Shown here: positions 26,596 to 43,588 of the stretch, one piece after another
Layout: each line of letters starts with the position of its first letter
Position numbering within the stretch: position 1 is the first letter of the stretch
NCBI GenBank assembly: GCA_964620265.1
Contig: CAZUGY010000002.1
Span: 13,504 to 77,503, forward strand
Reading direction: 5' to 3'
From: an uncultured Alcaligenaceae bacterium
GTDB lineage: Bacteria > Pseudomonadota > Gammaproteobacteria > Burkholderiales > Casimicrobiaceae
Length of the DNA: 64,000 bases
Position numbers and translations under genes: made by a program
The notes under the pieces: model-generated
The model's input: the letters and a program-made list of their open reading frames with translations, nothing else
Told to the model about the DNA's origin: nothing
Databases searched by the model: none

Positions 26596-29500
26596 ATGCT
26601 GTCGCGCTTCTTCATCGAGCGGCCCGTCTTCGCGGCGGTCGTCGCGCTCATCATCTGCCTCGCCGGCCTCGTGTCGATGACGCAGCTCCCGGTTTCGCAG
26701 TATCCCTCCATCACGCCGGTGCAGGTGACGGTCTCGGCCAGCTACCCCGGCGCCGACTCGCGCACGCTCGCCGAGTCCGTGGCCTCGCCCATCGAGCAGC
26801 AGATCAACGGCGTGGACAACATGCTCTACATGTCGTCGACGTCGAGCTCGACCGGCCAGCTCACGATGACGATCTACTTCTCGCTCGACACCGATCCCGA
26901 CATCGCGCAGGTGCAGGTGCAGAACCGCGTCAACCTCGCGATGCCGCAGCTGCCGTCGGCCGTGGTGCAGCAGGGCGTGAACGTGCAGAAGAAGTCGTCG
27001 TCGATCATGATGCTGCTGGCGGTCTACGCGAAGGACAACCGCTACAGCGCGAACTACATCGCCAACTACGCCAACGTCTACGTGCTCGATGCGCTGAAGC
27101 GCGTCAACGGCGCGGGCCAGGCGCAGATCATGGGTGTGCCCAACCAGGCGATGCGCATCTGGATGAATCCGGACCGCATGGCCTCGCTCGGCATCACCAC
27201 GAGCGACATCGCCAACGCCATCAACCAGCAGAACCAGCTCTTCGGCGCGGGCCAGATCGGCCAGCAGCCCAATGCCGGGCCGGTGGAGCTCACCTTCCCG
27301 GTCATCACGCAGCCGCAGTACACCGATCCGCAGCAGTACGAGAACATCGTCCTGCGCGCCTCGCAGGACGGCGCGGCGATCGTGCGCGTGGGCGATGTGG
27401 CGCGCGCCGAGATCGGCCTGCAGCAATACATCGTCAACAGCCAGATGAACGGCACGCCGGCCACGATCATCGCGGTCTACCAGCAGCCGGGCGCCAACGG
27501 GCTCCTCGTCTCCCAGGCCGTGCGCGAGACGATGGACAAGATGAAGTCCAAGTTTCCCGACGGGATGGAGTATCTCGTCGCGCTCGACACCAACGACTTC
27601 GTGCGGCTGTCGATCAAGGAAGTCATCAAGACGCTCTTCGAGGCGATGCTGCTCGTGGTGCTCGTGGTGTATCTCTTCCTGCAGAGCTTCCGCACCACGA
27701 TCATCTGCGCGGTGGCGATCGTGATCGCGCTCATTGCCACCTTCGCAGGGATGCTGGCCCTCGGCTTCTCGATCAACCTCCTCACGCTCTTCGGGCTCGT
27801 GCTCGCCATCGGGATGGTGGTGGACGACGCCATCGTGGTGGTCGAGAACGTCGAGCGCAACATGCAGCAGCACCACCTGTCGCCGAAGGACGCGACGATC
27901 CGCTCCATGGACGAGATCGCGAGCTCGCTCGTGGCCGTGGTGCTCGTGATGTGCTCGGTGTTCATCCCGGCGGCGTTCCTGCCCGGCACCACGGGACAGC
28001 TCTACAAGCAGTTCGCGATCACCATCGTGATCTCGGTCTCGGTATCGGGATTCGTCGCGCTCACGGTCACGCCGGCGATGTGCGCGGTACTGCTGAAGCA
28101 CACCCCACCGCCCACGCGCGGGCCGTTCGCCTGGTTCAACCGGCAGGTGGATCGCGTGACGCAGGCGTTCGGCGTGGCGGTGGGCTACGTCATCAAGTAC
28201 GCGGTGGTCGCACTGATCCTGCTCGCGGTGTTCCTCTACTCGATCTTCCACCTCTTCAAGATCCTGCCCACGAGCTTCGTCCCCAACGAGGACCAGGGTT
28301 ACGCCTTCGCCGCGATCATCATGCCGCAGGCCGCGAGCCTCGCGCGCACGCAGGAGATCACCAACCGCGCCGATGCGATCTTCAAGGACATCCCGGGGGT
28401 CAAGACGCGCACGGTCGTCACCGGCTACAGCCTGCTCGACAGCGGGTTCAAGACCAGCGCCGGCACGATCTTCGTGAACTTCGACGACTTCGACAAGCGC
28501 TACGAAAGCATCGAGACGGCCAAGGCGCAGAACGTGCGCACTATCCTGCAGACGTTCTATGCCAGGTCGAGCCAGATCGAGGAAGCGATCGTGGTGCCCA
28601 TCGCGCCGCCCGCCATTCCCGGCATCGGCACCACCGGTGGCTTCGAGTTCTGGATCCAGGACACCGGCACCGGCGATCCGGTGGCGCTGGAGCACGTGCT
28701 GCAGGACGTGATGAAGGCGGCGCGGGCGCGTCCCGAGCTCACCGGGCTCGCCACCACCTACAACGCGAGCACGCAGCAGCTCAAGGCCAACGTCGATCGC
28801 GAGAAATCGCAGCTCCTGGGCGTGCCGATCCAGGACGTCTACAGTGCCATCCAGGCGCAGTTCGGCTCGCTCGCGGTCAGCCAGTACAACCTCTTCTCCA
28901 ACGTGTGGTGGGTGATCCTGCAGTCGGATGCGCCCTACCGGCAGAATCCCGAGGACCTCACGCGCCTGTACACGCGCAACGGCCAGAACCAGATGGTGCC
29001 GCTGTCGGCGGTGGTGACGACGGAATGGACGTCGGGGCCGGACATCCTGCCGCACTTCAACGGCTTTGCGGCGGCCAAGATCAACGGGAACGCGGCGGCA
29101 GGCTACAGCTCGGGCGACGCGATCAGGGTGATGGAAGAGGTCGCGGGCGAGGTGCTGCCGCCCGGCTATACGTTCGCGTGGTCGGGGCTCGCCTTCGAGG
29201 AGAAGCAATCGGGCGGCACGTCGGGGCTCGCCTTCATCTTCGGCTTCATCATCGTGTTCCTGGTGCTCGCCGCGCAGTACGAATCGTGGACGCTGCCCGG
29301 GGCCGTGATGTCCGCGGTGCCCTTCGGCATCCTCGGCGCGCTCCTCACCAACCACCTGCGCGGGCTCGACAACGACGTCTACTTCCAGATCGGCCTTCTC
29401 GTGCTGATCGGCCTGGGTGCGAAGAATGCGGTGCTGCGCGTGTCCGCAGCGATCGACTTCCGCAAGCAGGGCAAGTCGATCATGGAAGCGACGATCCTCG

Positions 29501-29865
29501 CGGGCGAGCAGCGCCTGCGGCCGATCATCATGACCTCGCTCGCCTTTGCCATCGGCTGCCTGCCGCTGGCGCTCGCGGTGGGCGCGGGTGCCAATGCACG
29601 CCATTCGATCGGCACCGGCATCATCGGCGGCATGCTGGGGGAGACCACGCTCGCGATGCTCTACGTCCCGCTGCTCTTCTATCTCTTCGACCGCATGAAG
29701 GAAGGCCGCGAGGAGACGGTCGTGCACGTTGGTGAGACCGCGCACGCCGCGGCGGTGCCGACCGCTGCGGAAGATGCCGCCGGACCGCTTGCGGCTGACG
29801 TCCCGCCCGACGCTTCCACGCCCCCGCCGTCGGCTTCCACGCCGCCGTCGCGTCCGCAAGGCTGA
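26596..29865 (+). CDS. HAE1-family RND efflux permease
   Basis: 1089 aa. MLSRFFIERPVFAAV, GMVVDDAIVVVENVER, GLGAKNAV and RLRPIIMTSLAF. Pro/Ser-rich tail. Confidence 0.96.
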   Translation: MLSRFFIERPVFAAVVALIICLAGLVSMTQLPVSQYPSITPVQVTVSASYPGADSRTLAESVASPIEQQINGVDNMLYMSSTSSSTGQLTMTIYFSLDTDPDIAQVQVQNRVNLAMPQLPSAVVQQGVNVQKKSSSIMMLLAVYAKDNRYSANYIANYANVYVLDALKRVNGAGQAQIMGVPNQAMRIWMNPDRMASLGITTSDIANAINQQNQLFGAGQIGQQPNAGPVELTFPVITQPQYTDPQQYENIVLRASQDGAAIVRVGDVARAEIGLQQYIVNSQMNGTPATIIAVYQQPGANGLLVSQAVRETMDKMKSKFPDGMEYLVALDTNDFVRLSIKEVIKTLFEAMLLVVLVVYLFLQSFRTTIICAVAIVIALIATFAGMLALGFSINLLTLFGLVLAIGMVVDDAIVVVENVERNMQQHHLSPKDATIRSMDEIASSLVAVVLVMCSVFIPAAFLPGTTGQLYKQFAITIVISVSVSGFVALTVTPAMCAVLLKHTPPPTRGPFAWFNRQVDRVTQAFGVAVGYVIKYAVVALILLAVFLYSIFHLFKILPTSFVPNEDQGYAFAAIIMPQAASLARTQEITNRADAIFKDIPGVKTRTVVTGYSLLDSGFKTSAGTIFVNFDDFDKRYESIETAKAQNVRTILQTFYARSSQIEEAIVVPIAPPAIPGIGTTGGFEFWIQDTGTGDPVALEHVLQDVMKAARARPELTGLATTYNASTQQLKANVDREKSQLLGVPIQDVYSAIQAQFGSLAVSQYNLFSNVWWVILQSDAPYRQNPEDLTRLYTRNGQNQMVPLSAVVTTEWTSGPDILPHFNGFAAAKINGNAAAGYSSGDAIRVMEEVAGEVLPPGYTFAWSGLAFEEKQSGGTSGLAFIFGFIIVFLVLAAQYESWTLPGAVMSAVPFGILGALLTNHLRGLDNDVYFQIGLLVLIGLGAKNAVLRVSAAIDFRKQGKSIMEATILAGEQRLRPIIMTSLAFAIGCLPLALAVGAGANARHSIGTGIIGGMLGETTLAMLYVPLLFYLFDRMKEGREETVVHVGETAHAAAVPTAAEDAAGPLAADVPPDASTPPPSASTPPSRPQG
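29812..29850 (+). repeat. Short imperfect tandem repeat in the permease tail (ASTPPPS-ASTPPS)
   Basis: GCTTCCACGCCCCCGCCGTCG is followed directly by GCTTCCACGCCGCCGTCG. Confidence 0.55.
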
Positions 29866-29869
29866 TCCC

Positions 29870-31375
29870 GTGCGCGACCTGGCCTGCCCTGTGCGCCGCG
29901 CTGCCGATCCCGTGCGGCGCCTCGTCGCCTCCCTCGCCTGCGCGAGCCTCGTCGCGGGCTGCACCGTGGGTCCCGATTACGCGCGGCCCGCGATCGACAC
30001 GCCCGCCACCTTCCTCTATTCGCCGAAGGACGCCGCGGACACCGCGAACACCGCGTGGTGGAAGCAGTTCGACGATCCGGTGCTCGATGCGCTGATCGCG
30101 GAAGCGCTCGCCCACAACCAGAGCATCAGGGTCGCCGTGGGCAATGTCGAGCAAGCGGCGGGGGTGCTCACGCAGACGCGCTCGGCACTCTTCCCGCAAC
30201 TCGGCGGCAATGCGTCGGCGGGCCGCGCGCGCAGCTCCGAATCGGGCATCAGTCCCGAAGCCGCGAGCGTGCTGCGCAATCCGCAGAGCGCGTACCAGGC
30301 ATTGCTCTCCGCGAGCTGGGAGATCGACCTGTGGGGCCGCATCCAGCGGCTGTCGGAAGCGTCGCGGGCCAATCTTCTCGCCACCGACGAGGCGCGCAAG
30401 GGCGTGATCCTCACGCTGGTTTCCGGTGTTGCCACGAGCTACCTCACGCTGCGCGGCCTCGACCAGCAGCTCGTGGTGGCCAAGCGCACGCTCGATACCT
30501 ACGGCGAATCGCTGCGCCTTTTCAAGCTGCAGTTCCAGTACGGCCAGATCTCGCAGATGAACGTGTCGCAGGTGCAGTCGCAATACGAGACGGCCGCGGC
30601 GGCGATCCCGCAGATCGAATCGGAGATAGCGCAGCAGGAGCTGGCGCTGTGCGTGCTGCTCGGGCGCAACCCCGGCCCGATCGCGCGCGGCAAGTCGATC
30701 TACGACCTCGCGCTGCCCGCGGTGCCCGCCGGCGTGCCGTCGGACCTCCTCACCCGCCGTCCGGACCTCGTGCAGGCGGAGAACCAGCTCGTGGCCGCCA
30801 ATGCGCAGATCGGCGCGGCGCGTGCGCTGTACTTCCCGCAGATCTCGCTCACGGCCGCGGGGGGCTCGGGCAGCCCGGCGCTGTCGGATCTGTTCACCGG
30901 GCCCGCGCGCGTGTGGAGCTACGCGGGCTCGCTCGTAGGCCCCATCTTCACGTTCGGCGCGGTGAGCGGCCAGGTGGCGGCCGCCGAAGGCGCGCGCGAC
31001 GCGGCGGTCGCCAACTATCGCTATGCGATCCAGAATGCCTTCTCCGAGGTCGACCAGTCGCTCGTGGCCAGCGAGAAGGTGCAGGAGCAGCTCGCGGCCC
31101 AGCAGCGGCTCGTGAATGCGCTCGGCGACTACTCGCGACTCGCGCACCTGCAATACGACGGCGGATACACGTCGTACACGACGGTGCTGCAGGCGGAGCA
31201 GCAGCTCTTTCCGGCCGAGCTGCAGCTCGCCGCGGTGCGCGCGACGGTATTCACGTCGTCCGTCGCGATCTACAAGGCGATGGGCGGCGGCTGGGTGGTG
31301 GAAGCCGATCGCATGACGGGCAATGCTGCTCCACCGCCCGCCGAGCGCAGCACGGGAATGCCGCCGCTCTTCTAG
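29870..31375 (+). CDS. Outer-membrane efflux factor lipoprotein (OprM/NodT family)
   Basis: Lipobox VAGC-TVGPDY, SWEIDLWGR, LLTRRPDLVQAE and YKAMGGGW. GTG start at 29870 or 29912. Confidence 0.93.
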   Translation: MRDLACPVRRAADPVRRLVASLACASLVAGCTVGPDYARPAIDTPATFLYSPKDAADTANTAWWKQFDDPVLDALIAEALAHNQSIRVAVGNVEQAAGVLTQTRSALFPQLGGNASAGRARSSESGISPEAASVLRNPQSAYQALLSASWEIDLWGRIQRLSEASRANLLATDEARKGVILTLVSGVATSYLTLRGLDQQLVVAKRTLDTYGESLRLFKLQFQYGQISQMNVSQVQSQYETAAAAIPQIESEIAQQELALCVLLGRNPGPIARGKSIYDLALPAVPAGVPSDLLTRRPDLVQAENQLVAANAQIGAARALYFPQISLTAAGGSGSPALSDLFTGPARVWSYAGSLVGPIFTFGAVSGQVAAAEGARDAAVANYRYAIQNAFSEVDQSLVASEKVQEQLAAQQRLVNALGDYSRLAHLQYDGGYTSYTTVLQAEQQLFPAELQLAAVRATVFTSSVAIYKAMGGGWVVEADRMTGNAAPPPAERSTGMPPLF

Positions 31376-31574: not shown

Positions 31575-32135
31575 ATGAACCACCGCAGCATCATGGCAGC
31601 CGCCCTGTTCTGGGCGATGAGTTCCGGATTCGCATTCGCCGCGGACAAGGCCAAGGACCAGGCCGAAGTGAAGGCGGCGGGCGAGGCCGCGCTCGCCGCG
31701 CTCTACAAGGCGCAGCCCTCCGCGCGCAAGGCTGTCGAGTCTGCCGCGGGCTACGCCGCCTTCAGCAATTTCGGGATGAAGATACTCGTGGCCGGCGGCG
31801 GCTCGGGGAAGGGCATCGCCGTGAACAACAAGACCAAGGCCATCACCTACATGAAGATGGCCGAGGTGCAGGCGGGACTTGGCATCGGTGCCAAGAAGTT
31901 CCAGGTCGTGTGGGTATTCGCGGACGACGCCGCGCTCAACAATTTCATCAACTCCGGCTGGGAGTTCGGCGGTCAGGCCACCGCGGCCGCGAAATCGGGC
32001 GACAAGGGCAGCGCCTACCAGGGGGCCGTTTCGGTGTCGCCGGGCGTGTGGCTCTACCAGGTCACCGACAAGGGCCTCGCGCTGGAGCTCACCGCCAAGG
32101 GGACCAAGTACTACAAGGATGCGGATCTCAACTGA
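31575..32135 (+). CDS. Secreted YSC84/SYLF-like lipid-binding domain protein
   Basis: Signal peptide, GYAAFSNFG, GGGSGKGIAV, EVQAGLGIGAKKFQVVWVF and GWEFGGQATAAA. GAGGAG RBS. Confidence 0.8.
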   Translation: MNHRSIMAAALFWAMSSGFAFAADKAKDQAEVKAAGEAALAALYKAQPSARKAVESAAGYAAFSNFGMKILVAGGGSGKGIAVNNKTKAITYMKMAEVQAGLGIGAKKFQVVWVFADDAALNNFINSGWEFGGQATAAAKSGDKGSAYQGAVSVSPGVWLYQVTDKGLALELTAKGTKYYKDADLN

Positions 32136-32147
32136 GCGCTCGCGCCG

Positions 32148-32174
32148 GAAGGCGCGGTGACCGGGCGCGCCTTC
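32148..32174. terminator. Hairpin between convergent genes (possible bidirectional terminator)
   Basis: GAAGGCGCG (32148-32156) and CGCGCCTTC (32166-32174) form a perfect 9-bp stem between two stop codons. Confidence 0.5.
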
Positions 32175-32175
32175 G

Positions 32176-33870
32176 CTATGCGATGAGCCGCACGATCACC
32201 GTGCCCCACGTCGTGAGGAGGATGTGGCCTATCGCCACGGTCCCCGAGTAGCCCAGCACGGCCACCGAGCTTCCCGAACGCTCCTGCACGGCGGCGAGCG
32301 CCGCCGTCATCGTCTGCGCGCCCGCGAGCCCGCCGAGCAGCAGCAACGGATTGAGCTTCAGCACGTAGCGTCCGAAGTAGAGGCCCACGAAGAGCGGCGC
32401 GAGGGTCACCAGCACGCCGCCCAGCAGCAGCCCGATGCCGGACTCGCGCACCGCCGTCATGAAGTGGGGACCCGCCCCCAGGCCGATCATCGCCACGAAC
32501 GCCGCCAGGCCCAGCGAGATCATCAGGGCGACCGCGCCCGACGGTATCCTGCCGAAGCGGGGCCGCACCGAGTGCAGGTAGCCCACGAGGAGCCCCGCGA
32601 GCAGGGTGCCCACGCTCGTCCCCATCGCGATGCGCAACTCCCCCAGCGGAACCACGATGGAAACGCCCACGATGGCGCCGGTGACGATGCCGAGGCCCAG
32701 CGCGACGAAGTCGGTCTGGTCCGTGGGCAGCACGATCTCGCCCAGGCTGTCGGCAGCGCGCTTGACCGCGGCGGTTCGTCCCGACAGATACACGATGTCG
32801 CCGGCCTCGATCACGGTACCGGGTGCAACCGGCAGCTCCTGCCCTCCGCGGGAGATCGAGCGCAGGAAGACGCCGCGCAGCGGCACGTCCGACTGCACGA
32901 TCTGCGCGATGGACTTGCCGGCGATCGCCCTGTTCGATACGAACACGCCGCACGCCATCACCGGAACGTCGAGCGCCTCGCGATCCTCGATCTCGGTGGC
33001 ACCTGCGCGGCCGATCACGTCGGTGAGGATCTCGCGCCGGCCCGACAACGCCAGCACGTCGCCCGCGAGCACGACCGTGGACATGTCCGGCTCGATGAGA
33101 CGGCCGTCGCGCCGGATCCGCTCCACGAAGACGCGCGCGTCCGGCACCATGCCTTCGATCTGCTGCACGGTATGGCCCGCCACCCGGCCGCCCTCTTGCA
33201 CCCGGTAGGCGCGCAGCTCGAACGGCCGCCACGCCGAGCCCACCCCGGCGCTCGTGCGCCCGATGCCCAGCGACTCCTCCACCGCCCTTCCTTCGGCGGC
33301 GAGGTCGATGCGCAGGAGCTTCGGTCCGATCACGCTGCAGAACACGATGACCCCGAGCGCGCCGAAGACGTAGCACAGCGCATCGGCGACCGCGACGTGT
33401 CCCACGAGGCGCTCGCGCACGTCCTCGGGCAGCGGCAGCGACTGGATCGCCTCGATCGCGGTGCCGATCGCCGGTGACTCGGTGAGGGCGCCCGACAGGA
33501 GTCCCGCCGCCAGCCCCGGATCGAGATCGAGAAAGCGCGCGACGGCATACGCGGCGCCCAGTCCCGTGAAGGACATGACCGTCGCGAGCGCCGCCCACCG
33601 CAATCCGTCGCCCTTCATCGCCTTGAAGAATTGCGGCCCGACGGAGTAGCCGATGGCGAACAGGAACAGCATGAACATCAGCGACTTGGCCATCGACGAC
33701 ACGGTGACCGGAAACACGTAGCCCACCACAAGCCCCACCAGGAGGGACCCCGTGACCGGCCCGAGCGCAAAGCCCATGACCTTCAGGTTGCCGAGCCAGT
33801 AGCCGATCCCCACCACGAAGAACACGGCGACTTCCGGATACTTCGCCAGCGTCGCGGCCATCCAGTCCAT
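32176..33870 (-). CDS. AspT/YidE-family (AAE) amino acid exchanger with two TrkA-C domains
   Basis: FMLFLFAIGYSVGPQFF, GLLSGALTESPAIG, central RCK-C loops, LFGGLAGAQT-like GGLAGAQTMTAAL and LGYSGTVAIGHILLT. Confidence 0.9.
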   Translation of the reverse strand: MDWMAATLAKYPEVAVFFVVGIGYWLGNLKVMGFALGPVTGSLLVGLVVGYVFPVTVSSMAKSLMFMLFLFAIGYSVGPQFFKAMKGDGLRWAALATVMSFTGLGAAYAVARFLDLDPGLAAGLLSGALTESPAIGTAIEAIQSLPLPEDVRERLVGHVAVADALCYVFGALGVIVFCSVIGPKLLRIDLAAEGRAVEESLGIGRTSAGVGSAWRPFELRAYRVQEGGRVAGHTVQQIEGMVPDARVFVERIRRDGRLIEPDMSTVVLAGDVLALSGRREILTDVIGRAGATEIEDREALDVPVMACGVFVSNRAIAGKSIAQIVQSDVPLRGVFLRSISRGGQELPVAPGTVIEAGDIVYLSGRTAAVKRAADSLGEIVLPTDQTDFVALGLGIVTGAIVGVSIVVPLGELRIAMGTSVGTLLAGLLVGYLHSVRPRFGRIPSGAVALMISLGLAAFVAMIGLGAGPHFMTAVRESGIGLLLGGVLVTLAPLFVGLYFGRYVLKLNPLLLLGGLAGAQTMTAALAAVQERSGSSVAVLGYSGTVAIGHILLTTWGTVIVRLIA

Positions 33871-33885
33871 GCGCGCTCCCGGTCG

Positions 33886-35613
33886 CTACTTCGACAGCAC
33901 CATCGCGAGATAGCCGAACACGGTGAGCAGCACGCCCGATACCGCGTAGCCCACGGGAAAGCCGATCCACGGCACCGAGCTGTCGATCTCCTTGGCCGCC
34001 TCGCGCGCAGGACCCGAGTGCGACCGCGCGCCGGCCACGCCGCCCATCAGCACCGCCGGATTGATCTTCATCCAGTGGTAGCCGATGGCCCACACGAGGA
34101 TCGGCGGGATGGTGGTGACGATGAAGCCCGCGAGGAAGATGTACAGCGCGACCGCGCCCGTGAGCTGCGAGATGAGGCCCGCGCCGGCGTTGATGCCCAC
34201 GATCGCGATGAACACGATGAGCCCCAGGTCCTCCAGGATGTTGCGCGCGGCATTGGGCGTGTTGCCGAAGAAGCGCAGGCGCGACACCACCGAGGACACG
34301 ATCACGCCCGAGACCAGCAGGCCCCCGGCGTTGCCGAGGCCCACGTTGGATCCGGCCAGCGGAAAGGAGATCGCGCCGATGAGGAAGCCCAGGATCATGC
34401 CGAGCGACAGCGTGAGGAGGTCGGTGGCGGTGCTCGGCCGCGCGACCTTGCCGAGGAGGCCGGAGAGCTTGCCGACGGCGGACTTGAGGCCCACCACGAA
34501 CAGCACGTCGAAGCGCTGCAGCTTGACGTGCAGGCCCACCGGGATCGGAACGCCGCCGCGCTCGAGGCGCTGCAGGCCGAGCTGGCCCGCGAATTCGGCG
34601 GTGCGCAGATCGCCCAGCTCCTTGCCTTCCATGTCCTTGTTGGTGACGAGGATCTCGGCCTGGTCGAGCGGGATGTTGAGCGCCTTCGCATCCGGCACCT
34701 CGGGGCCGATGAGCCCCATGCGCTCGGTCATCGAATCGAGGCGCCCGCCGAGCACGATCACGTCGCCCTCGCGCAGCACGAGGTCGTCGGGCGCGCCGAG
34801 CATGTCGGAGCGGTCGCTGTCGGGGAGGTCAGCGCCCGGCCGCCGCACGTTGACGATCTTGTATTCCGGATTGCGCTGCAGGAACTGCAGCACCGTGGAG
34901 CCCACGACCTGCGCATTGGTGAGGCGATAGGCGCGCAACGCGAGCGGCCGGTAGCCCGTGAGGCCGGCATCGTCGACATTGGGCACGCCCTCTTCCTCCT
35001 CGTAGCGCTTGGCGGCCGCCTTGGCATCGATGCCCCACCAGCGCGGCAGGTACTTGCAGATGAGGATGATGCCCACCGTCCCCCAGATGTACGTCAGCCC
35101 GTAGGACAGCGCGATCATGCCGCTCACGGTCTCGAAGGTCTGTCCAGGCCCCAGCGGGAACACGCCCTGCCGCACCGCTTCCTCCGCCGAGCCGATCGCC
35201 GCCGACATCGTCATCGCGCCGGCGAGGATGCCCCCCGCCGCGCCCGCGGGCAGGTCCCACAGCTTGGAGAAGAACACCGCGCCCAGGAGTCCCAGGATCG
35301 AGCAGAACACCGCGAGCACGGTGAACTTCAAGCCGTCGCCCTTCAGGCTGTTGATGAACGACGGCCCCACGCGCAGCCCCACCCCGTACATGAAGAGGTA
35401 GTAGAAGAGCGACTTCGTGAAGTTGTCGAGGCTCATCTTGATGCCGTAGGTGGACGCCCACGCGGAGATGCCCGCCCCCACCACGATGGCGGACGCCACC
35501 ATGCCCAGCCCATAGCCCTTGACCGTGAACTTGCCGAGGAGGACCGCGCCACCCACCGTGAAGAAGAGCAGGATGAAGGGATTCGCCGCCAGCCACTTGA
35601 GGAAGATTTCCAT
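33886..35613 (-). CDS. AspT/YidE-family (AAE) exchanger, second copy
   Basis: YLFMYGVGLRVGPSF, GILAGAMTMSAAIG, TrkA-C loops, GGVAGARSHSG and GFPVGYAVSGVLLT. Confidence 0.9.
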   Translation of the reverse strand: MEIFLKWLAANPFILLFFTVGGAVLLGKFTVKGYGLGMVASAIVVGAGISAWASTYGIKMSLDNFTKSLFYYLFMYGVGLRVGPSFINSLKGDGLKFTVLAVFCSILGLLGAVFFSKLWDLPAGAAGGILAGAMTMSAAIGSAEEAVRQGVFPLGPGQTFETVSGMIALSYGLTYIWGTVGIILICKYLPRWWGIDAKAAAKRYEEEEGVPNVDDAGLTGYRPLALRAYRLTNAQVVGSTVLQFLQRNPEYKIVNVRRPGADLPDSDRSDMLGAPDDLVLREGDVIVLGGRLDSMTERMGLIGPEVPDAKALNIPLDQAEILVTNKDMEGKELGDLRTAEFAGQLGLQRLERGGVPIPVGLHVKLQRFDVLFVVGLKSAVGKLSGLLGKVARPSTATDLLTLSLGMILGFLIGAISFPLAGSNVGLGNAGGLLVSGVIVSSVVSRLRFFGNTPNAARNILEDLGLIVFIAIVGINAGAGLISQLTGAVALYIFLAGFIVTTIPPILVWAIGYHWMKINPAVLMGGVAGARSHSGPAREAAKEIDSSVPWIGFPVGYAVSGVLLTVFGYLAMVLSK

Positions 35614-35633
35614 GACCGTTCCTTTCCGGTTGC

Positions 35634-38432
35634 CTAACGGGAGGTGGCTTTGGTGCGCGGCGCCGGCGCGCGCCCGGCCTTGGCACCATGGGCGGCGAGC
35701 GCCTCGGGCTTCAGGAGCTCGAGTCCGCGCGTGGCATTGAACCCATGGATCTCCTTCACGTCGAGCTTGCGCATGAAGGCGATGGTCTCCGGCGTGACCA
35801 CCTGCCCCGGCACCATGATCGGAAAGCCCGGGGGATAGGGAATCACGAACTTGGCCGACACGAGCTCGGGTCCGTTCTTGAGCCGCTCGTCGATGCGCTT
35901 GTCGTTGAGCTTCAGGTATTCGCAGTTGGCCGCGTCGTAGGCCATGTAGTAGGCCGCGCGCATGTCGCCTTCCGGCGTGGCGCTCTTGCCATCCAGCCGG
36001 AACGCATCGTGGAAGCGGCTGAAGTTGGGAAGGTCGGGCACGTCGTCGACGAGGGACTTCACGCGCTGCGCGAAGGCCTCGCGCTCCGCCTCGCCGCCGT
36101 CGGCGAGCCGCTTGTCGATGGCATGCGACATGTCGACGAGCGCCTTCACGAGATGCGCCATGTCGCTTCGCGTGTTGTTGATGTTGATCTGCACGAGCAC
36201 GCTGTTGCGCGAGGTCTTGTTGATCTGGATGTCGTAGTCGTTGGCGAGCAGCGCCTTGAACTGCGTGCCGTCGTACCCGGCCTTGCCGCAGAGCAGCGTG
36301 ATGCGCGTGGGATCGAGGAAGAACTCGTCCTCGCGCAGCGCCCGCAGCGTGTCGGCCAGCGTGCGGCCGGGCGTGCCGTAGTCGGCGAAGCCGGAACGCC
36401 GGTATTCCGCGGGGATCATCTCCTCCGGAGTCGCGGCACGGAAGTAGCGCGAGATGAGCGGATGCCCGTTGATCTCGCGGCGGATCTCGACGGCGAGCTG
36501 GATCGCCCGCTGCACGAGCTCGTAGCCCTCGAGCTCCATCTGCCGCCGCGCAAGGTCGAGCGAGGCGATGATCTGGAGGTTGGGCGAGGTGGAGGTGTGC
36601 GTGAAGAACGCCTCCTTGAAGGCGGCCTCGACGGACGGGAAGTCCTGGTCCGCCACCACGATGATCGAGCCCTGGCGCAATGCCGACATCGACTTGTGCA
36701 CGGAGTCGGACTCGTATACGCGGATGCGCACCTTGTCAGGGTCCGGCAGGAGCGCCATGTCGAGGAGCTTGGGATCGTTGGGCTTCAGCTTGGCGACCGC
36801 AGCCTTCGACGCCTCGTAGTGCTCGCGATACGCCGGATCGCGCATCAGCGCGCGCAGGCTCGCCGCGGCGCCCATCGCGGTGCGGCGGCGCAGGAACGGC
36901 GAGAAGCGCGCGTAGCCGTACCACGCCTCGTCCCAGAGGAAGACGAGGTCAGGCTTGATGGCGAGGCATTCGAGCATCGTCCGCTCGACGTTGGCGATGT
37001 GGCCGTCGAACGTGCAGTTGGTGAGCACGAGCATGCGCGCGCGGTCGAGCTTGCCCTCGGCCTTCAACTGCAGCAGCGCCTCCTTGATGGGACGGATCGC
37101 GAGGCTGCCATACATCGAGTACTGCGTGAGCGGGAAAGCATCGATGTACAGCGGCTCGCCGCCCGCGAGCACGAGGCCGTAGTGATGCGATTTGTGGCAG
37201 TCGCGGTCGATCAGCACGATGTCGCCGGGCCGCACCAGCGCCTGGTGGATGATCTTGTTGGACGTGGACGTGCCGTTGGTCACGAAGAACGTGCGGTCGC
37301 CGCCGAAGGCGCGCGCCGCCTTGTCCTGCGCGACCTTGATGTTGCCGGTGGGCTCGAGCAGGCTGTCGAGCCCGCCCGTGGTGGCGGAGGACTCGGCGAG
37401 GAAGAGGTTCGCGCCGTAGAACTCGCCCATGTCGCGGATCCAGTTCGACTTGAAGATCGACTTCCCGCGCGCCACCGGCAACGCATGGAAGGTGCCGATC
37501 GGCCGCGCGGCGTAACGCTTCAGGTTGTCGAAATACGGCGTGGCATAGCGGTCGGCCACGCCGGCCTGGATGGCGAGGTGGATCTCCATCGGCTCCTCCA
37601 CGCCGTAGAACACGCGGCGGATGATGTCGGCGTCCTCGGCGCCTGCGAGCTTGCCGACGTCGTGGTCGGTCACCACGAAGAGATCGAGCTCGGGCCGCAG
37701 GTTGTGCAGCAGGCGGCAGAGGGGAACACCCAGGTCGGACAGCCCCACCTGGATCCCGTCGGGCACGTGGGCCGACAGGAGCTCGCGCAAGGCCGGCGTG
37801 CTCAACTGCGACTCGAAGGCGAAGCCCTCGATGGCCACGATGGACTGGAGGTTGAAGTTGAAGAGCGTGGCGAGGACCGCATCCTCGAAGCTGCCGACCA
37901 CCACCGGCTCGTAGGTGAAGGCATCCTCGTCGCGGCGCAGGCGCCGGAAGGTGTCGCGCAGCGACGGCCACGTCGAGCGGTCGCCGGCGGCCACGATCAG
38001 CACCTCGAAGTAGGGACGCCGGCTCTGCCCGCGGCCGAGCGACGGCGGCAGGATGTCCGGCAATTGCGCCTCCGAGTCGTCGTCGGCCGTCCAGGCCTGC
38101 GCGTCGTCGCGGTAGCTGCCCGACATGAGCGCGCCGCTCACCCGGGCGACGAGGCGGGCGAAGCCGCGGGCATCGCCCGACTGGAGCAGATCGTGGATCT
38201 CCGCCATGAGGTGCGGACCCGGATACCCGTTGAGCTCCTCGAGCGAGGTGAGCTCGGCGAGTGCTGCGGCCGCGCGCTTGCGCAGGCCCGCGGCGTCACC
38301 CCCGGCCAGGAGCGCCTTGGCGACCCGGTTGAGATCGCGCCAGCGATCGATGCGCGCCTCGGCGGCGGAGAAGAACTGGCTGAAGGCACCGGCGACCGGT
38401 CCCGCGGCGGACTTGCTTGCGCTCTTGCTCAT
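35634..38432 (-). CDS. Orn/Lys/Arg-type PLP-dependent amino acid decarboxylase (about 932 aa, extended N-terminus)
   Basis: FHALPVARGKS, FVTNGTSTSNK, DRDCHKSHHY, WDEAW, PLP-lysine motif SVHKS, HTSTSPN, LDPTRITL and PYPPGFPIMVPG. Start placed at the ATG after a GGAGGAAG RBS. Confidence 0.9.
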   Translation of the reverse strand: MSKSASKSAAGPVAGAFSQFFSAAEARIDRWRDLNRVAKALLAGGDAAGLRKRAAAALAELTSLEELNGYPGPHLMAEIHDLLQSGDARGFARLVARVSGALMSGSYRDDAQAWTADDDSEAQLPDILPPSLGRGQSRRPYFEVLIVAAGDRSTWPSLRDTFRRLRRDEDAFTYEPVVVGSFEDAVLATLFNFNLQSIVAIEGFAFESQLSTPALRELLSAHVPDGIQVGLSDLGVPLCRLLHNLRPELDLFVVTDHDVGKLAGAEDADIIRRVFYGVEEPMEIHLAIQAGVADRYATPYFDNLKRYAARPIGTFHALPVARGKSIFKSNWIRDMGEFYGANLFLAESSATTGGLDSLLEPTGNIKVAQDKAARAFGGDRTFFVTNGTSTSNKIIHQALVRPGDIVLIDRDCHKSHHYGLVLAGGEPLYIDAFPLTQYSMYGSLAIRPIKEALLQLKAEGKLDRARMLVLTNCTFDGHIANVERTMLECLAIKPDLVFLWDEAWYGYARFSPFLRRRTAMGAAASLRALMRDPAYREHYEASKAAVAKLKPNDPKLLDMALLPDPDKVRIRVYESDSVHKSMSALRQGSIIVVADQDFPSVEAAFKEAFFTHTSTSPNLQIIASLDLARRQMELEGYELVQRAIQLAVEIRREINGHPLISRYFRAATPEEMIPAEYRRSGFADYGTPGRTLADTLRALREDEFFLDPTRITLLCGKAGYDGTQFKALLANDYDIQINKTSRNSVLVQININNTRSDMAHLVKALVDMSHAIDKRLADGGEAEREAFAQRVKSLVDDVPDLPNFSRFHDAFRLDGKSATPEGDMRAAYYMAYDAANCEYLKLNDKRIDERLKNGPELVSAKFVIPYPPGFPIMVPGQVVTPETIAFMRKLDVKEIHGFNATRGLELLKPEALAAHGAKAGRAPAPRTKATSR

Positions 38433-38643: not shown

Positions 38644-38657
38644 TTGATGCACGTCAA
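38644..38657. promoter_or_regulatory. FNR/FixK-type box
   Basis: TTGAT-gcac-GTCAA, one mismatch to TTGAT-N4-ATCAA. It sits inside the perfect palindrome GTCTTGA-N6-TCAAGAC (38641-38660). Confidence 0.7.
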
Positions 38658-38750: not shown

Positions 38751-39842
38751 CTAGGCCCTCACCTCGACGCTCGAGGTCCGGTGCGCGGCGCGCGCTTCGT
38801 TGCGCCACCGTCCGGGCGTGTTTCCGGACCAGCGCCGGAAGGTCCGCTGGAACGAGCTCAATCCGCTGTAGCCCAGCGTCATCGCGATCTCGTCCATCGG
38901 AATCTCGCCGTCGGCCAGGAGCTGGCGGGCGAAGTCGTAGCGCACGCCATCGAGCACCGCCTGGAAGCTCGTGCCATGCGCCTTCAGGCGCCGGTTGAGC
39001 GTGCGCCGATGCAGGGCCAGCGACTGCGCCACGTCGTCACCCGAGTGGCGGCCGACGATGAGCAGCGTGCGCAACGCGCGCACCACGCGATCGACGAAAG
39101 CGCCGGGACCGAATTCCTGCGCCCGCGCCTCGAGGACGCGTCGCTGCGCGGCATCGGCGCCGGGTACCGGATGCGCGAGCCACTCGCGCGGAAAGCGCAG
39201 GGCGGCGCGATCCGAGTCGAAGCGGAGGCTCCCATGGAAGACCCGCCGGTATTCCGCGATGTGCGCGGGGCGCGCATGGGGAAGCAGCACGGTCTGGATC
39301 GGCCACGCGCCCCCGCACAGCTCCCGCAGGAGGTTGACGGCACCGGCGAGGGCGGAGGCATAGATATGCTCGCTGCCGGCGACCTCGGGTTGATAGATCG
39401 CATAGCCGAAGTCGGCGCTTGCTCCGTGGTCGACCAGGAAGGTCATGGCGCCGCCGCTATTGAGCCGCTGGTAGAGCACGAACATCCGCAGCGCGGCGCC
39501 CACCGTTTCGCAATTGCGGGCGATCTCGCCGGCAAAGCCATAGTCGCGCAGTTGCCATGCCTCGCCGCAGAGGAGCCCGAAGTGCGGGCACTTGGTCTGC
39601 TCCGCCGCCACGCAGAGCAGGCGGCCGAGGCTCGCATAGGGAACCCGCTGGTCGGCCCGATCGAGCGCGTCGGGGGAGAGCCCCGCCATCGCCAGGATGC
39701 GCCCGGGATCGGCGCCCATGCTGGAAAGCAGGCCGGGCACGCTGGTGAACGCGCCCACCCGCTGGTCGGGCCAGGAAGGGGACGCGTCGTCGTGACGCGA
39801 ACCGTGGATACTCGAATTTGCCGCCAAAAGCGCTCCTGTCAT
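38751..39842 (-). CDS. AraC-family transcriptional regulator (same subfamily as 5326-6351)
   Basis: PHFGLLCG, NCETVGAAL, and C-terminal HTHs VAQSLALHRRTLNRRL and IAMTLGYSGLSSFQRTFRRW. Alternative start at 39719. Confidence 0.88.
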   Translation of the reverse strand: MTGALLAANSSIHGSRHDDASPSWPDQRVGAFTSVPGLLSSMGADPGRILAMAGLSPDALDRADQRVPYASLGRLLCVAAEQTKCPHFGLLCGEAWQLRDYGFAGEIARNCETVGAALRMFVLYQRLNSGGAMTFLVDHGASADFGYAIYQPEVAGSEHIYASALAGAVNLLRELCGGAWPIQTVLLPHARPAHIAEYRRVFHGSLRFDSDRAALRFPREWLAHPVPGADAAQRRVLEARAQEFGPGAFVDRVVRALRTLLIVGRHSGDDVAQSLALHRRTLNRRLKAHGTSFQAVLDGVRYDFARQLLADGEIPMDEIAMTLGYSGLSSFQRTFRRWSGNTPGRWRNEARAAHRTSSVEVRA

Positions 39843-40010: not shown

Positions 40011-40418
40011 ATGAACAAGTCTCATATGGCCGTGGCGATTGTCGCCGCCACCGCCCTCATCGGCGTCGCTGCGGCGCAACAGCCCGCGACGTCCACCGAC
40101 AAGGCCACGGCGAAGGCGCAACGCGATGCCGCCGCGCAGAAGAACCTGAAGAGCGCCACCGAGGGTACCGCCAAGGGGTACACCGGCGGCGCCGCCGAGG
40201 GCTCCGCGAAGGCCGCCGCGACCAAGGACATGCCGAGGACGGCACCCGACGCCGCCGCCAAGCAGCAGGCCGTCAAGTCGGCCACCAAGGGTGCGGGCAC
40301 CGGATACGGCGAGGCCGCCGCCGACTCCGCCGCCATCGCCGCCAAGGACAAGTCGGGCAAGACGCCCCTGCCCAAGCCGAAGGCGGATGCACCGGAGATG
40401 CGCAAGGTCGTTCCGTAA
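40011..40418 (+). CDS. Hypothetical secreted Ala/Lys-rich protein with two internal repeats
   Basis: Strong AAGGAGG RBS and signal peptide MNKSHMAVAIVAATALIGVAAA. Repeats KSATEGTAKGY..AAEGSA and KSATKGAGTGY..AAADSA. Ends 18 nt before pflB. Confidence 0.7.
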   Translation: MNKSHMAVAIVAATALIGVAAAQQPATSTDKATAKAQRDAAAQKNLKSATEGTAKGYTGGAAEGSAKAAATKDMPRTAPDAAAKQQAVKSATKGAGTGYGEAAADSAAIAAKDKSGKTPLPKPKADAPEMRKVVP

Positions 40419-40436: not shown

Positions 40437-42689
40437 ATGGCAACTGCGCTGAAGGCTGCCGCGCGCAGCCAGGATCCATGGCGGGATTTCACCCCTGGCG
40501 TGTGGCAGTCGCGCGTCGACGTGCGCGACTTCATCCAGCGCAACTACACGCCGTACGAAGGTGACGGCGCGTTCCTCGCCGGCCCCACCGCCCGCACCAC
40601 GAACCTGTGGAAGTCCCTGGCGCCGCTGCTGGCCGAAGAGCGCAAGAAGGGCATCCTCGACGTCTCGCAGGTGCCCGCGGGCATCCTCGCCCATGGTCCC
40701 GGCTACATCGACCGCGACCACGAGATCATCGTCGGACTGCAGACCGACGCGCCGCTGAAGCGCGCGATCATGCCCAACGGCGGCTGGCGCGTGGTGGCAG
40801 CAAGCCTCGAGGCCTACGGCTACAAGCCCGACGAGCGCGTGGGCGAGATCTTCACCAAGTACCGCAAGACGCACAACGACGGCGTGTTCGATGCCTACAC
40901 GCCCGCGATCCGCAAGGCGCGCAAGTCCGGCGTGGTGACGGGCCTGCCCGATGCCTACGGCCGCGGCCGCATCATCGGCGACTACCGGCGCGTCGCGCTG
41001 TACGGCGTCGATTTCCTCATCGAGGACAAGCAGCGCGAGAAGGCCGAGCTCGACGACCGCCACTCCATCGAGGAGGTGATCCGCGTGCGCGAGGAGCTCG
41101 CCGAGCAGATCCGGTCGCTGCAGGAGCTGAAGGAGATGGCCGCGAGCTATGGCCACGACATCGCAGGTCCCGCGGCCAATGCGCGCGAGGCCGTGCAGTG
41201 GACCTACTTCGGCTACCTCGCCGCGATCAAGCAGCAGAACGGCGCCGCGATGTCCGCCGGGCGGCTGTCCACGTTCTGGGACATCTACTTCGAGCGCGAC
41301 CTGCGCGACGGCACGCTCACCGAGGCGCAGGCGCAGGAGATCATCGACGACGTCGTGATCAAGTGGCGCCTCGTGCGCTTCCTCCGCGCGCCCGAATACA
41401 ACGCGCTCTTCTCCGGCGATCCCGTGTGGGTCACCGAGGTGGTGGGCGGCATGGGCGACGACGGGCGCACGCTGGTGACGAAGAGCGCGTTCCGCATGCT
41501 GCACACGCTGAACAACCTGGGCCCCGCGCCGGAGCCCAACCTGACCGTCTTCTGGTCCACGCGCCTGCCCGAGGGCTTCAAGCGCTTCGCGATCAAGGTG
41601 TCGATCGACACCAGCTCCATCCAGTACGAGGCCGACGACCTCATGCGGCCCAAGTGGGGCGACGACTGTGCCATCGCCTGCTGCGTGTCCGCCATGCGCC
41701 TCGGCAAGCAGATGCAGTTCTTCGGCGCGCGGGTCAACCTGCCCAAGACGCTGCTCTACGCGCTCAACGGCGGCCGCGACGAGATCAGCGGCGAGCAGAT
41801 CGCCCCGCGCCTGGCCCCCGTGACCGGCGACGTCCTCGACTACGACGAGGTGATGGCGCGCCTCGATCCGATGCTCGACTGGCTCGCGCAGACCTACGTG
41901 AATGCGCTGAACGTCATCCACTACATGCACGACAAGTACTGCTACGAGGCGATCGAGATGGCGCTGCACGATCGCGACGTGCTGCGCACGCTGGCCTGCG
42001 GCATCGCCGGCCTCTCGCATGCCGCCGACAGCCTGTCGGCGATCCGGTACGCCAAGGTACGTCCGGTCCGCGACGAGCGCGGGATCATCGTCGACTTCCA
42101 CACCGAGGGCGAGTTCCCCTGCTTCGGCAACAACGACGACCGCGCCGACGACATCGCCAAGGCACTGGTGTCGACGATGATGAACAAGATCCGCCGCTTC
42201 CCGACCTACCGCAACGCCGTGCACACGCAATCGGTGCTCACGATCACGTCCAACGTGGTGTACGGCAAGGCCACCGGCAACACGCCCGACGGCCGCAAGA
42301 AGGGCGAGGCCTTCGCCCCCGGCGCCAATCCCTCCAACGGCCGCGATACGCATGGCGCGCTGGCGGCGCTCATGTCGGTGGCCAAGATCCCCTACGACGA
42401 CGCCGAGGACGGCATCTCGCTCACGCTCTCGGTGGTGCCGTCCGCGCTCGGCAACGCGCAGGAGCGCCTCGACCGCGGCGTGGGCGCGCTCGACGCCTAC
42501 TTCGGCACCGGCGGCTTCCACGTCAACATCAACGTGCTGAACCGCGAGACGCTGCAGGATGCGATGAAGCATCCGGAGAAGTATCCGCAGCTCACGATCC
42601 GGGTGTCGGGCTACGCGGTGAACTTCGTCAAGCTCACGAAGGAGCAGCAGCAGGACGTCATCAACCGCACGTTCCACGGCGCGATCTAG
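40437..42689 (+). CDS. pflB: Pyruvate formate-lyase (formate C-acetyltransferase)
   Basis: 750 aa. [31 protein letters not shown], catalytic IACCVS, and glycyl-radical motif [11 protein letters not shown]. Confidence 0.97.
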
Positions 42690-42696
42690 GACCCCC

Positions 42697-43554
42697 ATGG
42701 CGGACACGCTGGTGGGCAGCCGCTATTCGCTGCATGTCGCAAGGCGTGGCGCAAACGAGACGAAGGCCTCGCGCGACTATTTTGCCGTGCAGCCCGGGGA
42801 CACCGAGCTCGATGCCCCCGGCGAGGACATCGCGGGCTTCGTCCACTCCTACGAGGTGGGCAGCACGGTGGACGGGCCGGGACTGCGCTTCGTGGCCTTC
42901 CTCACCGGCTGCCTGCTGCGCTGCCAGTACTGCCACAACCCGGATACCTGGCACAAGCACAACGGCCACCCCGTGACCGTGTCGCGCGCCATGAAGACGA
43001 TCGGCAAGTACGCCGCGGTGCTCAAGCTCTCCAGGGGCGGCATCACGATCTCCGGCGGCGAGCCCGTGGTGCAGAAGGCCTTCGTCGTGGAGGTGTTCCG
43101 CCGCTGCAAGGCACTCGGCCTGCACACCTGCCTCGACACGTCGGGGCGACTGGGCGAGCGCCTCACCGACGAGGACCTCGCGTCCATCGACCTCAACCTG
43201 CTCGACATCAAGTCGGGCGACCCCGAGATCTACGAGCGCGTGACGCGGCAGCCGCTGCAGCCCACGCTCGACTATGCGCGGCGGCTGTCGGCGCTCGGCC
43301 GTCCCATGTGGATCCGCTACGTGCTCGTGCCGGGCCTCACCGACGGCGTCGACAACGTCGAGAAGGTCGCGCAGTTCTGCGGGAGCCTCGCGACCGTCGA
43401 GCGCGTGGAGATCCTGCGCTTCCACCAGATGGGCCGCGACAAGTGGGAAAAGCTGGGCCTCGAATACACGCTGGGCAACGTCGAGCCGCCCGACGCCGCG
43501 CTGACCGAGCGGGTGCGCGGGCAGTTCCGCAGCCACGGCCTCACCGTCTACTAG
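42697..43554 (+). CDS. pflA: PFL-activating enzyme (radical SAM)
   Basis: GSTVDGPGLRFVAF, CLLRCQYCHNPDTW (CxxxCxxC), GGITISGGEP and WIRYVLVPGLTD. Confidence 0.96.
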   Translation: MADTLVGSRYSLHVARRGANETKASRDYFAVQPGDTELDAPGEDIAGFVHSYEVGSTVDGPGLRFVAFLTGCLLRCQYCHNPDTWHKHNGHPVTVSRAMKTIGKYAAVLKLSRGGITISGGEPVVQKAFVVEVFRRCKALGLHTCLDTSGRLGERLTDEDLASIDLNLLDIKSGDPEIYERVTRQPLQPTLDYARRLSALGRPMWIRYVLVPGLTDGVDNVEKVAQFCGSLATVERVEILRFHQMGRDKWEKLGLEYTLGNVEPPDAALTERVRGQFRSHGLTVY

Positions 43555-43588
43555 ACGACGATCACCAGGCAACTCATCGGGGAAGACC

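Follow-up and report, generated by a model that had tools for sequence, protein, structure and literature searches.

Cycles composed of a decarboxylase and an antiporter are a textbook means by which bacteria resist acid and generate a proton-motive force without respiration. The systems AdiA/AdiC, CadA/CadB and SpeF/PotE employ three-domain, mostly decameric decarboxylases that act on basic substrates and are partnered by APC antiporters. In the GadB/GadC system of E. coli and Lactococcus, which confers glutamate-dependent acid resistance and is subject to the AraC-type regulators GadX and GadW, a group II decarboxylase is combined with an APC antiporter, and all glutamate cycles known to us use GadB-type enzymes together with APC antiporters. 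The present text concerns a three-gene array in a stretch of 64,000 nucleotides from an uncultured Alcaligenaceae bacterium (GenBank assembly GCA_964620265.1, contig CAZUGY010000002.1, positions 13,504 to 77,503; the whole stretch is termed the window), in which a long-form decarboxylase (DC) precedes two exchangers of the AAEx family (EX1 and EX2) and which may encode a glutamate/gamma-aminobutyrate (GABA)-type cycle built from other components.

Two described systems lie closest to this array, one on the side of the transporters and one on the side of the enzyme. The AAEx family (TC 2.A.81), which includes AspT, YidE and YbjL, carries aspartate, succinate and glutamate (PMC12462496; PMC9527358). 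AspT of Tetragenococcus halophilus is a homodimer (PDB 8Y1X), in which T130, S132, Y167, L431, T496 and S498 bind aspartate, and it operates with the aspartate decarboxylase AspD (AsdA) in an Asp(1-)/Ala(0) exchange cycle (PMC12462496). Rv2531c of Mycobacterium tuberculosis (PDB 9N0N/9N0O/9N0P) is a four-domain enzyme whose extra N-terminus was resolved by cryo-electron microscopy in 2025 as a bundle of four helices that precedes a receiver-like domain, with domain limits of 1-131 for the N-terminal domain (NTD) and 134-288 for the RRD (PMC12329521). According to a PNAS paper of 2026, Rv2531c decarboxylates L-glutamate but not lysine, ornithine or arginine, in vitro as well as in vivo; these four compounds constitute the entire in vitro panel, and the activity is Mg2+-dependent and cooperative with a K0.5 for glutamate of 509 mM (PMC13506015). 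Moreover, the enzyme supplies most of the cellular GABA and feeds the internal GABA shunt, and metabolomics of the knockout revealed a change in GABA alone (PMC13506015). H405, K406, R576, T606, R718 and N731 have been implicated in its function, R576, T606, R718 and N731 being proposed to bind the side chain and the alpha-carboxylate of glutamate (PMC13506015).

In the window, DC (932 aa; 35634-38432), EX1 (575 aa; 33886-35613) and EX2 (564 aa; 32176-33870) lie consecutively on the minus strand, with open reading frames chosen by codon-position G+C and with gaps of 20 nt between DC and EX1 and of 15 nt between EX1 and EX2, in full agreement with the coordinates and spacing given by a first-pass annotation of this DNA. 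The spacing is operon-like. The ATG of DC is preceded by AAGGAGG, and ribosome-binding sites are present in both intergenic gaps, namely GGAAAGGA ahead of EX1 and GGGAG ahead of EX2. A consensus scan placed no terminator-like site within the array, though such scanning for promoters and terminators is uninformative in DNA of about 69% G+C. Directly past the EX2 stop, a GC-rich hairpin of the form GAAGGCGCG-N9-CGCGCCTTC (32148-32174, minus strand), read from the sequence, is situated between convergent genes; it has no T-run and hence was not called by the scan, and it likely marks the end of the operon.

DC is a pyridoxal phosphate (PLP)-dependent decarboxylase of the Rv2531c type, a long-form subfamily within IPR000310/PF01276. 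Its catalytic domain matches PF01276 (OKR_DC_1) with an E-value of 7.9e-68, accompanied by a weak match to PF03711, and the motif SVHKS, described as intact in the first-pass annotation, is indeed preserved at residues 577-581 with K580 as the PLP lysine. Rv2531c (9n0n/9n0o) is the top match in the PDB (E 7e-222), and in the HMMER alignment residues 23-917 of DC correspond to residues 22-906 of Rv2531c, thus encompassing all four domains with the extra N-terminal domain before the receiver-like wing domain. The unusual length and additional N-terminal region noted earlier are therefore genuine and reflect a four-helix bundle as in Rv2531c. Identity between the two enzymes amounts to 45% overall, with 56% in the catalytic domain and only 28% in NTD plus RRD. 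Among the implicated residues, H405, K406, R576, T606 and N731 of Rv2531c correspond to H413, K414, R586, T615 and N738 of DC, while R718 is replaced by a lysine, K726, in DC and in all 77 orthologues. H413 and K414, which are part of a CHKSHH motif, as well as K580, R586, T615, K726 and N738 are invariant in these 77 orthologues. On the other hand, the NCBIfam equivalog models for lysine, arginine and ornithine decarboxylases score DC at merely 142-176 bits against cut-offs of 794-1310. A label as a basic amino acid decarboxylase is thus probably wrong. Since Rv2531c, the relative at 45% identity, uses L-glutamate, the substrate of DC is predicted to be acidic, with glutamate as the leading candidate. 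The notion of a mismatched basic amino acid decarboxylase, with which the array had first been described, is therefore abandoned, and most of the mismatch dissolves; an acidic substrate would be in keeping with the AAEx family, for which transport of aspartate, succinate and glutamate has been described (PMC12462496). The amino acid/amine pair, which had been left unnamed, now has glutamate/GABA as its foremost candidate without being fixed. As a separate observation on this enzyme, an orthologous decarboxylase of 80% identity in a genome of the same genus (G030, C427:565-3357) contains an in-frame TAA, which may indicate a pseudogene or an assembly error.

EX1 and EX2 each consist of two PF06826 (Asp-Al_Ex) repeats flanking a central TrkA_C region, which is present once in EX1 and twice in EX2, and both score 126-131 bits with TIGR01625, above the cut-off of 72. 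Their relation to AspT itself differs: with the AspT equivalog model TIGR03802, EX1 reaches 383.1 bits and remains under the cut-off of 546.95, EX2 reaches 553.2 bits and is marginally above it, and EXC, the exchanger accompanying AsdA in related loci, reaches 650 bits. EX2 also matches T. halophilus AspT (8y1x) with an E-value of 1.8e-60. In a tree of 103 AAEx proteins, EX1 belongs to a clade of 13 members with 100% support and EX2 to a clade with 99% support, both distinct from the EXC clade. EXC always adjoins AsdA (TIGR03801, 747-786 bits) and thereby forms an ordinary aspT-asdA pair, while the EX1 clade is the one found beside the decarboxylase when AsdA is absent.

Mapping of the pocket residues by alignment to the aspartate-bound AspT structure (PMC12462496) revealed a signature that is fixed within each of the three clades and different between them. 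T130, S132, Y167 and L431 are common to all. In addition, EX1 features R76, M131, Y163, R495, S496 and S498, EXC features G76, I131, Y163, R495, T496 and T498, and EX2 features S76, E131, D163, Q495, T496 and T or I at 498. Hence, the EX2 pocket contains two acidic residues, E131 and D163, instead of Q131 and Y163 and is devoid of arginine. The two arginines of EX1 would suit an anionic substrate, the acidic pair of EX2 would rather suit an amine or a neutral species, and judging from these signatures EX1 and EX2 very probably carry different species.

The association of this enzyme clade with AAEx exchangers extends far beyond the window. In a survey of 541 relatives with one genome per species, from which the best 80 loci (58-88% identity, many phyla) were retained, an AAEx gene is present in 69 of the 69 loci that extend at least 2.2 kb downstream, and in 62 of these it lies on the same strand within 500 nt downstream of the decarboxylase. 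The linked loci span Pseudomonadota, Acidobacteriota, Methylomirabilota/Rokubacteria, Nitrospirota, Planctomycetota and Chloroflexota, and the proposal of a decarboxylase/exchanger unit, for which a synteny check had been suggested, is strongly supported by these counts. A cultured carrier, Ensifer canadensis, shows on plasmid pT173d the order aspT-decarboxylase-aspT-porin-AsdA in its RefSeq annotation. Cupriavidus pinatubonensis LMG 23994, with the order DC-EX1, Ensifer adhaerens and Variovorax sp. HJSM1_2 are further carriers in culture. For the 53 loci whose downstream flank measures 6 kb or more, the prevailing gene orders are DC-EXC-AsdA-EX2 (18), DC-EXC-AsdA (7), DC-EXC-AsdA-EXD (6) and, with three loci each, DC-EX1, DC-EX2 and DC-EX1-EX2, the last comprising the window, L023 and L036. 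Altogether, an aspT-asdA pair adjoins the decarboxylase in about 40 of these 53 loci, while EX1 and EX2 each serve as its only AAEx neighbour in three. In the tree of the decarboxylases, the position following DC shows at least 11 changes between EX1 and EXC-AsdA, some of which separate almost identical enzymes such as those of L019 and L024. The nearest relatives (L013 and L014, 85-87% identity) possess EXC-AsdA-EX2 in the same pflA-AraC-DC setting, and EX1 of the window's lineage therefore occupies the position that is held by aspT-asdA in its relatives. The idea of a heterodimeric exchanger, raised in the first-pass annotation, finds no support: EX1 and EX2 are only 30% identical, each clade occurs alone with the decarboxylase elsewhere and AspT is a homodimer (PMC12462496), so that an obligate EX1/EX2 heterodimer was set aside.

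The cluster is a patchy accessory module: the decarboxylase is found in 4 of 24 other species of the window's genus, and 16 other families of the order yielded no example. In other phyla the cluster has further neighbours, comprising a DcaP-like porin with a coiled-coil N-terminus in 19 loci, an OprD-like porin in 10, a SulP anion transporter in 11 and a DASS carrier in 8; these names rest on reading of the sequences rather than on a family scan (examples are L075 6419-7909, L082 13752-15134, L040 4818-6530 and L065 14972-16378), and none of these recruited genes occurs in the window. Distant long-form enzymes of 41-49% identity on Roseobacter and Rhizobium plasmids have other neighbours (biotin carboxylase, C45 peptidase, ABC transporters), and the AAEx link is therefore a trait of one orthologous clade. 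Rv2531c itself presumably stands alone in the M. tuberculosis genome. In Roseobacter ponti p1 (L096, 6031-11265) and Rhizobium leguminosarum (L098, 5980-11177), the long-form decarboxylase is followed by a 'biotin carboxylase' of the ATP-grasp type, a C45-family peptidase and ABC transporter genes, a conserved setting of this enzyme family that differs from the AAEx clusters; in the Roseobacter locus, a gabT gene is located 4 kb upstream of the decarboxylase.

The inventory of the host genome, an assembly of 99.7% completeness, narrows the possible partners of the three proteins. AsdA is absent genome-wide, the best match reaching 39 bits against a cut-off of 435, and EX1 and EX2 can therefore not be serving a distant AsdA, a possibility that had been named as one that would overturn the initial proposal. 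The earlier statement that the window contains neither aspD nor an APC antiporter likewise holds and can be widened, since AsdA is missing from the entire genome and PF13520 matches occur only on contigs C81, C251 and C109 and not on the window's contig C2. A canonical GadB-type glutamate decarboxylase is absent as well, which leaves the long-form enzyme as the only candidate glutamate decarboxylase. Furthermore, no GabT above cut-off was detected genome-wide (best 213 versus 507 bits). With AsdA and a canonical glutamate decarboxylase absent and no GabT above cut-off, EX1 and EX2 are without any other evident enzyme partner, and the lack of a recognised canonical GABA sink favours export of GABA. 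Three AAEx genes exist in the genome, all of them within the window. Independently of the array, the genome encodes, in the region C50:18784-25034, a second OKR_DC_1 decarboxylase of ordinary length (PF01276, 428 bits) at a distance of about 4 kb from a class-III aminotransferase; this enzyme probably serves the metabolism of polyamines or basic amino acids and has no connection with the operon.

Taken together, we favour the reading that the operon encodes a glutamate/GABA-type decarboxylation-antiport cycle, to which we assign about an even chance of being correct on the strength of sequence comparisons. In such a cycle, external glutamate would enter in exchange for GABA through EX1, EX2 or both, while cytoplasmic DC would convert glutamate to GABA and CO2 with consumption of one proton per turn. 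Swapping Glu(1-) for GABA(0) would contribute to the membrane potential in the manner of the Asp(1-)/Ala(0) exchange of AspT, and each turn would thus raise the internal pH and build proton-motive force. Labour might be divided, with EX1 and its two arginines handling the anion and EX2 with E131 and D163 the amine or neutral species. Induction could take place at low O2 or low pH by means of an FNR-type box and an adjacent AraC regulator. On this reading, the exchangers would perform antiport rather than export.

Set against the described systems, this scheme would share with AspD/AspT the transporter family and fold as well as the proposed logic of an acidic amino acid entering, a neutral product leaving and one proton being consumed, and relatives of the locus even hold a bona fide AsdA-AspT pair within the cluster. 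In contrast, the host genome is devoid of AsdA, DC belongs to the OKR_DC_1 family rather than to the aminotransferase-like family of AsdA, EX1 fails the AspT equivalog cut-off and EX2 deviates at pocket positions 131 (E) and 163 (D). With GadB/GadC it would have in common the conversion of glutamate to GABA, the Glu/GABA exchange, proton consumption, energy gain and an adjacent AraC-family regulator, but an OKR-family long-form enzyme and elevator-type AAEx exchangers take the place of the group II decarboxylase and the APC antiporter, in a genome that has no GadB-type enzyme. The homologous PF01276 catalytic domain and the pattern of decarboxylase plus exchanger are shared with AdiA/AdiC, CadA/CadB and SpeF/PotE, whereas none of their characteristic features, three domains, decamers, basic substrates and APC partners, applies here. 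The closest likeness on the enzyme side is that to Rv2531c, with an end-to-end alignment and retention of the PLP lysine, the H-K pair and the equivalents of R576, T606 and N731; the differences are the moderate identity, the replacement of R718 by lysine and the operon linkage of the DC clade to AAEx exchangers as opposed to an enzyme feeding an internal GABA shunt.

Several observations weigh against the proposed cycle. Rv2531c, the sole characterised member of the family, feeds its internal GABA shunt without an exchanger, and given the 45% identity and the K0.5 of 509 mM, glutamate may not be the preferred substrate in the DC clade. The implicated residues are also kept in the distant long-form members with other gene contexts, which means that their conservation marks the family and does not prove specificity. 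Moreover, six of the seven genomes with the order DC-EXC-AsdA possess a single AAEx gene genome-wide (L024, L058, L061, L065, L075 and L085, corresponding to whole genomes G001-G006). For these genomes, the options are that EXC transports the pairs of both enzymes, that aspartate is the substrate of the decarboxylase, or that the latter needs no exchanger.

These single-exchanger genomes bear on an alternative in which the cycle is of the same kind but runs on another acidic substrate, by alpha-decarboxylation of aspartate to beta-alanine or with cysteate, cysteine sulfinate or 2-aminoadipate. The arrangement would be simplest if the decarboxylase and AsdA shared an imported substrate, in line with the frequent position of the decarboxylase beside an aspT-asdA pair and with the six genomes whose AsdA-linked exchanger is the only AAEx gene; the distance to Rv2531c, the exchange of R718 for lysine, the narrow panel of four compounds and the very high K0.5 leave room for such a substrate, too. 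However, the Rv2531c knockout altered GABA alone, R586 as the proposed binder of the gamma-carboxylate is invariant, and AsdA-free loci such as that of the window retain the decarboxylase with exchanger clades of its own. We regard this alternative as unlikely, although it survives best among the competitors.

A further alternative dispenses with antiport altogether: GABA would be formed from internal glutamate for a shunt, for glutamate homeostasis or for osmotic balance, and the AAEx proteins would merely export or import in the way of SucE or of this family's glutamate exporters. Such an assignment agrees with the behaviour of Rv2531c, which draws on an internal pool and feeds the GABA shunt of M. 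tuberculosis, with the existence of succinate and glutamate exporters among AAEx members, and with a very high K0.5 that would suit an enzyme sensing a large internal glutamate pool. It is at odds with the lack of a GabT above cut-off in the host and with the porins that join the cluster (19 DcaP-like and 10 OprD-like loci, and Ensifer), which point to external substrates; moreover, an exchange cycle has been proven for AsdA-AspT, the sister module. On balance, this explanation appears improbable.

Retaining an ornithine, lysine or arginine decarboxylase with non-cognate AspT-type exchangers for a basic amino acid and its amine is hardly tenable. The nearest Pfam and NCBIfam models are those of LdcC, AdiA and SpeF, and the acidic residues of the EX2 pocket could accommodate a cationic amine, but all these models score far under their cut-offs, the nearest characterised relative accepts none of the three basic substrates, and the equivalent of R576, which is absent from lysine decarboxylases, is invariant here. 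Least credible of all is an Asp/Ala exchange on behalf of an aspartate 4-decarboxylase encoded elsewhere, with a functionally unrelated DC. EX2 does narrowly pass the cut-off of the AspT equivalog model, and in relatives its orthologues are located after AsdA, but the nearly complete genome is devoid of AsdA, EXC as the clade always travelling with AsdA is the one missing here, and the linkage of decarboxylase and AAEx genes is near universal.

The glutamate/GABA cycle can be extended into a broader and decidedly tentative proposal, which we hold with much less confidence than the cycle itself. Accordingly worded, the Rv2531c-type enzyme of most environmental bacteria would be the catalytic half of an unrecognised Glu:GABA (or general acidic amino acid) decarboxylation-antiport system based on AAEx elevator transporters and not primarily a GABA-shunt enzyme. 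EX1 might represent a new subfamily of AAEx proteins that are dedicated to Glu(1-)/GABA antiport and able to replace AspT-AsdA, EX2 with its acidic pocket might carry the protonated amine or a second product in a split of import and export, and the module might be wired together with pyruvate formate-lyase and a third AAEx protein into a Crp/Fnr-controlled island of anaerobic energy conservation.

Both protein families and the principle of the cycle are already known, while their combination appears undescribed: no paper on a long-form OKR-fold glutamate-type decarboxylase with AAEx exchangers was found in the literature, and the PNAS paper on Rv2531c makes no mention of antiporters or gene neighbourhoods (PMC13506015). 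What the window adds is the AsdA-free DC-EX1-EX2 form, the pocket signatures of the clades, the repeated swap between EX1 and EXC-AsdA and a pfl/Crp-Fnr setting. If the glutamate/GABA cycle proves true, it would constitute a second, evolutionarily independent cycle of this type, composed of a disguised OKR-family enzyme and elevator-type AAEx exchangers and widespread in soil and rhizosphere bacteria (Acidobacteriota, Rokubacteria, Burkholderiales, rhizobia). The Rv2531c family would thereby acquire a physiological role outside mycobacteria, new substrates would be added to the AAEx family, and thousands of annotations as "arginine decarboxylase" and "aspartate-alanine antiporter" would be corrected. 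The form in the window offers a clean test case, because its exchangers have no enzyme partner but DC.

Expression under low O2 had been proposed from an FNR box upstream of the operon, a proposal of which the local elements stand. The 318-nt leader of DC contains the FNR/Dnr-type palindromic box TTGACGTGCATCAA (38644-38657), the sole exact TTGAY-N4-RTCAA in the 64 kb, where 0.08 would be expected by chance. The box, of the TTGAT-N4-ATCAA type, is positioned 212 nt upstream of the DC ATG and centred about 218 nt upstream, and no -10 element could be placed at class II spacing by eye. Conservation, on the contrary, is not convincing: among 78 related loci, only 4 have such a box upstream of the decarboxylase, 3.3-fold over background, which suggests a local feature at best. 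An Rfam search yielded nothing credible in the way of a riboswitch or known RNA in the leader or in the region of 31-46 kb. Directly upstream, on the DC strand, lies a gene for an AraC-family regulator (38751-39842, minus; PF12625 and HTH_18; QhpR-like at 206 bits, under cut-off), a candidate dedicated regulator of which homologues of 49-66% identity flank the cluster in seven related loci (L013, L014, L017, L018, L038, L043 and L048).

Divergent from the AraC gene, an array of pflB, pflA, the third AAEx gene and a Crp/Fnr-family regulator spans 40437-45933 on the plus strand. It encodes a PflB of 750 aa (TIGR01255, 1153 bits), a PflA of 285 aa and a YidE-like AAEx transporter (43589-45178, plus; PRK03818, 276 bits, under cut-off), which had gone unrecorded in the first-pass annotation. 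The placement of an AAEx gene behind pyruvate formate-lyase, in replacement of FocA, suggests an exporter of organic acids for fermentation products. The Crp/Fnr-family regulator (45172-45933, plus; NF008365, 138 bits versus a cut-off of 228) has an ETVSR (E--SR) recognition helix and is a possible reader of the box; it is devoid of an N-terminal Fe-S Cys cluster and is encoded 6.5 kb away, and its membership in the decarboxylase system is putative. The best FNR-like match genome-wide scores 191.6 bits against the same cut-off of 228. Control by low O2 is thus plausible in view of the box, the adjacent pflBA and the nearby Crp/Fnr regulator.

Between the AraC gene and pflB, a small open reading frame of 135 aa (40012-40418, plus) has a strong ribosome-binding site; its product begins like a signal peptide and continues with a sequence of low complexity rich in Ala, Lys and Gly. 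On the other side of the operon, a Ysc84-domain protein (31575-32135) is encoded convergently with EX2, and the DNA just downstream of the array also contains, at 26596-31375 on the plus strand, genes for an AcrB-like RND efflux pump of 1089 aa and for an outer-membrane factor (OEP).

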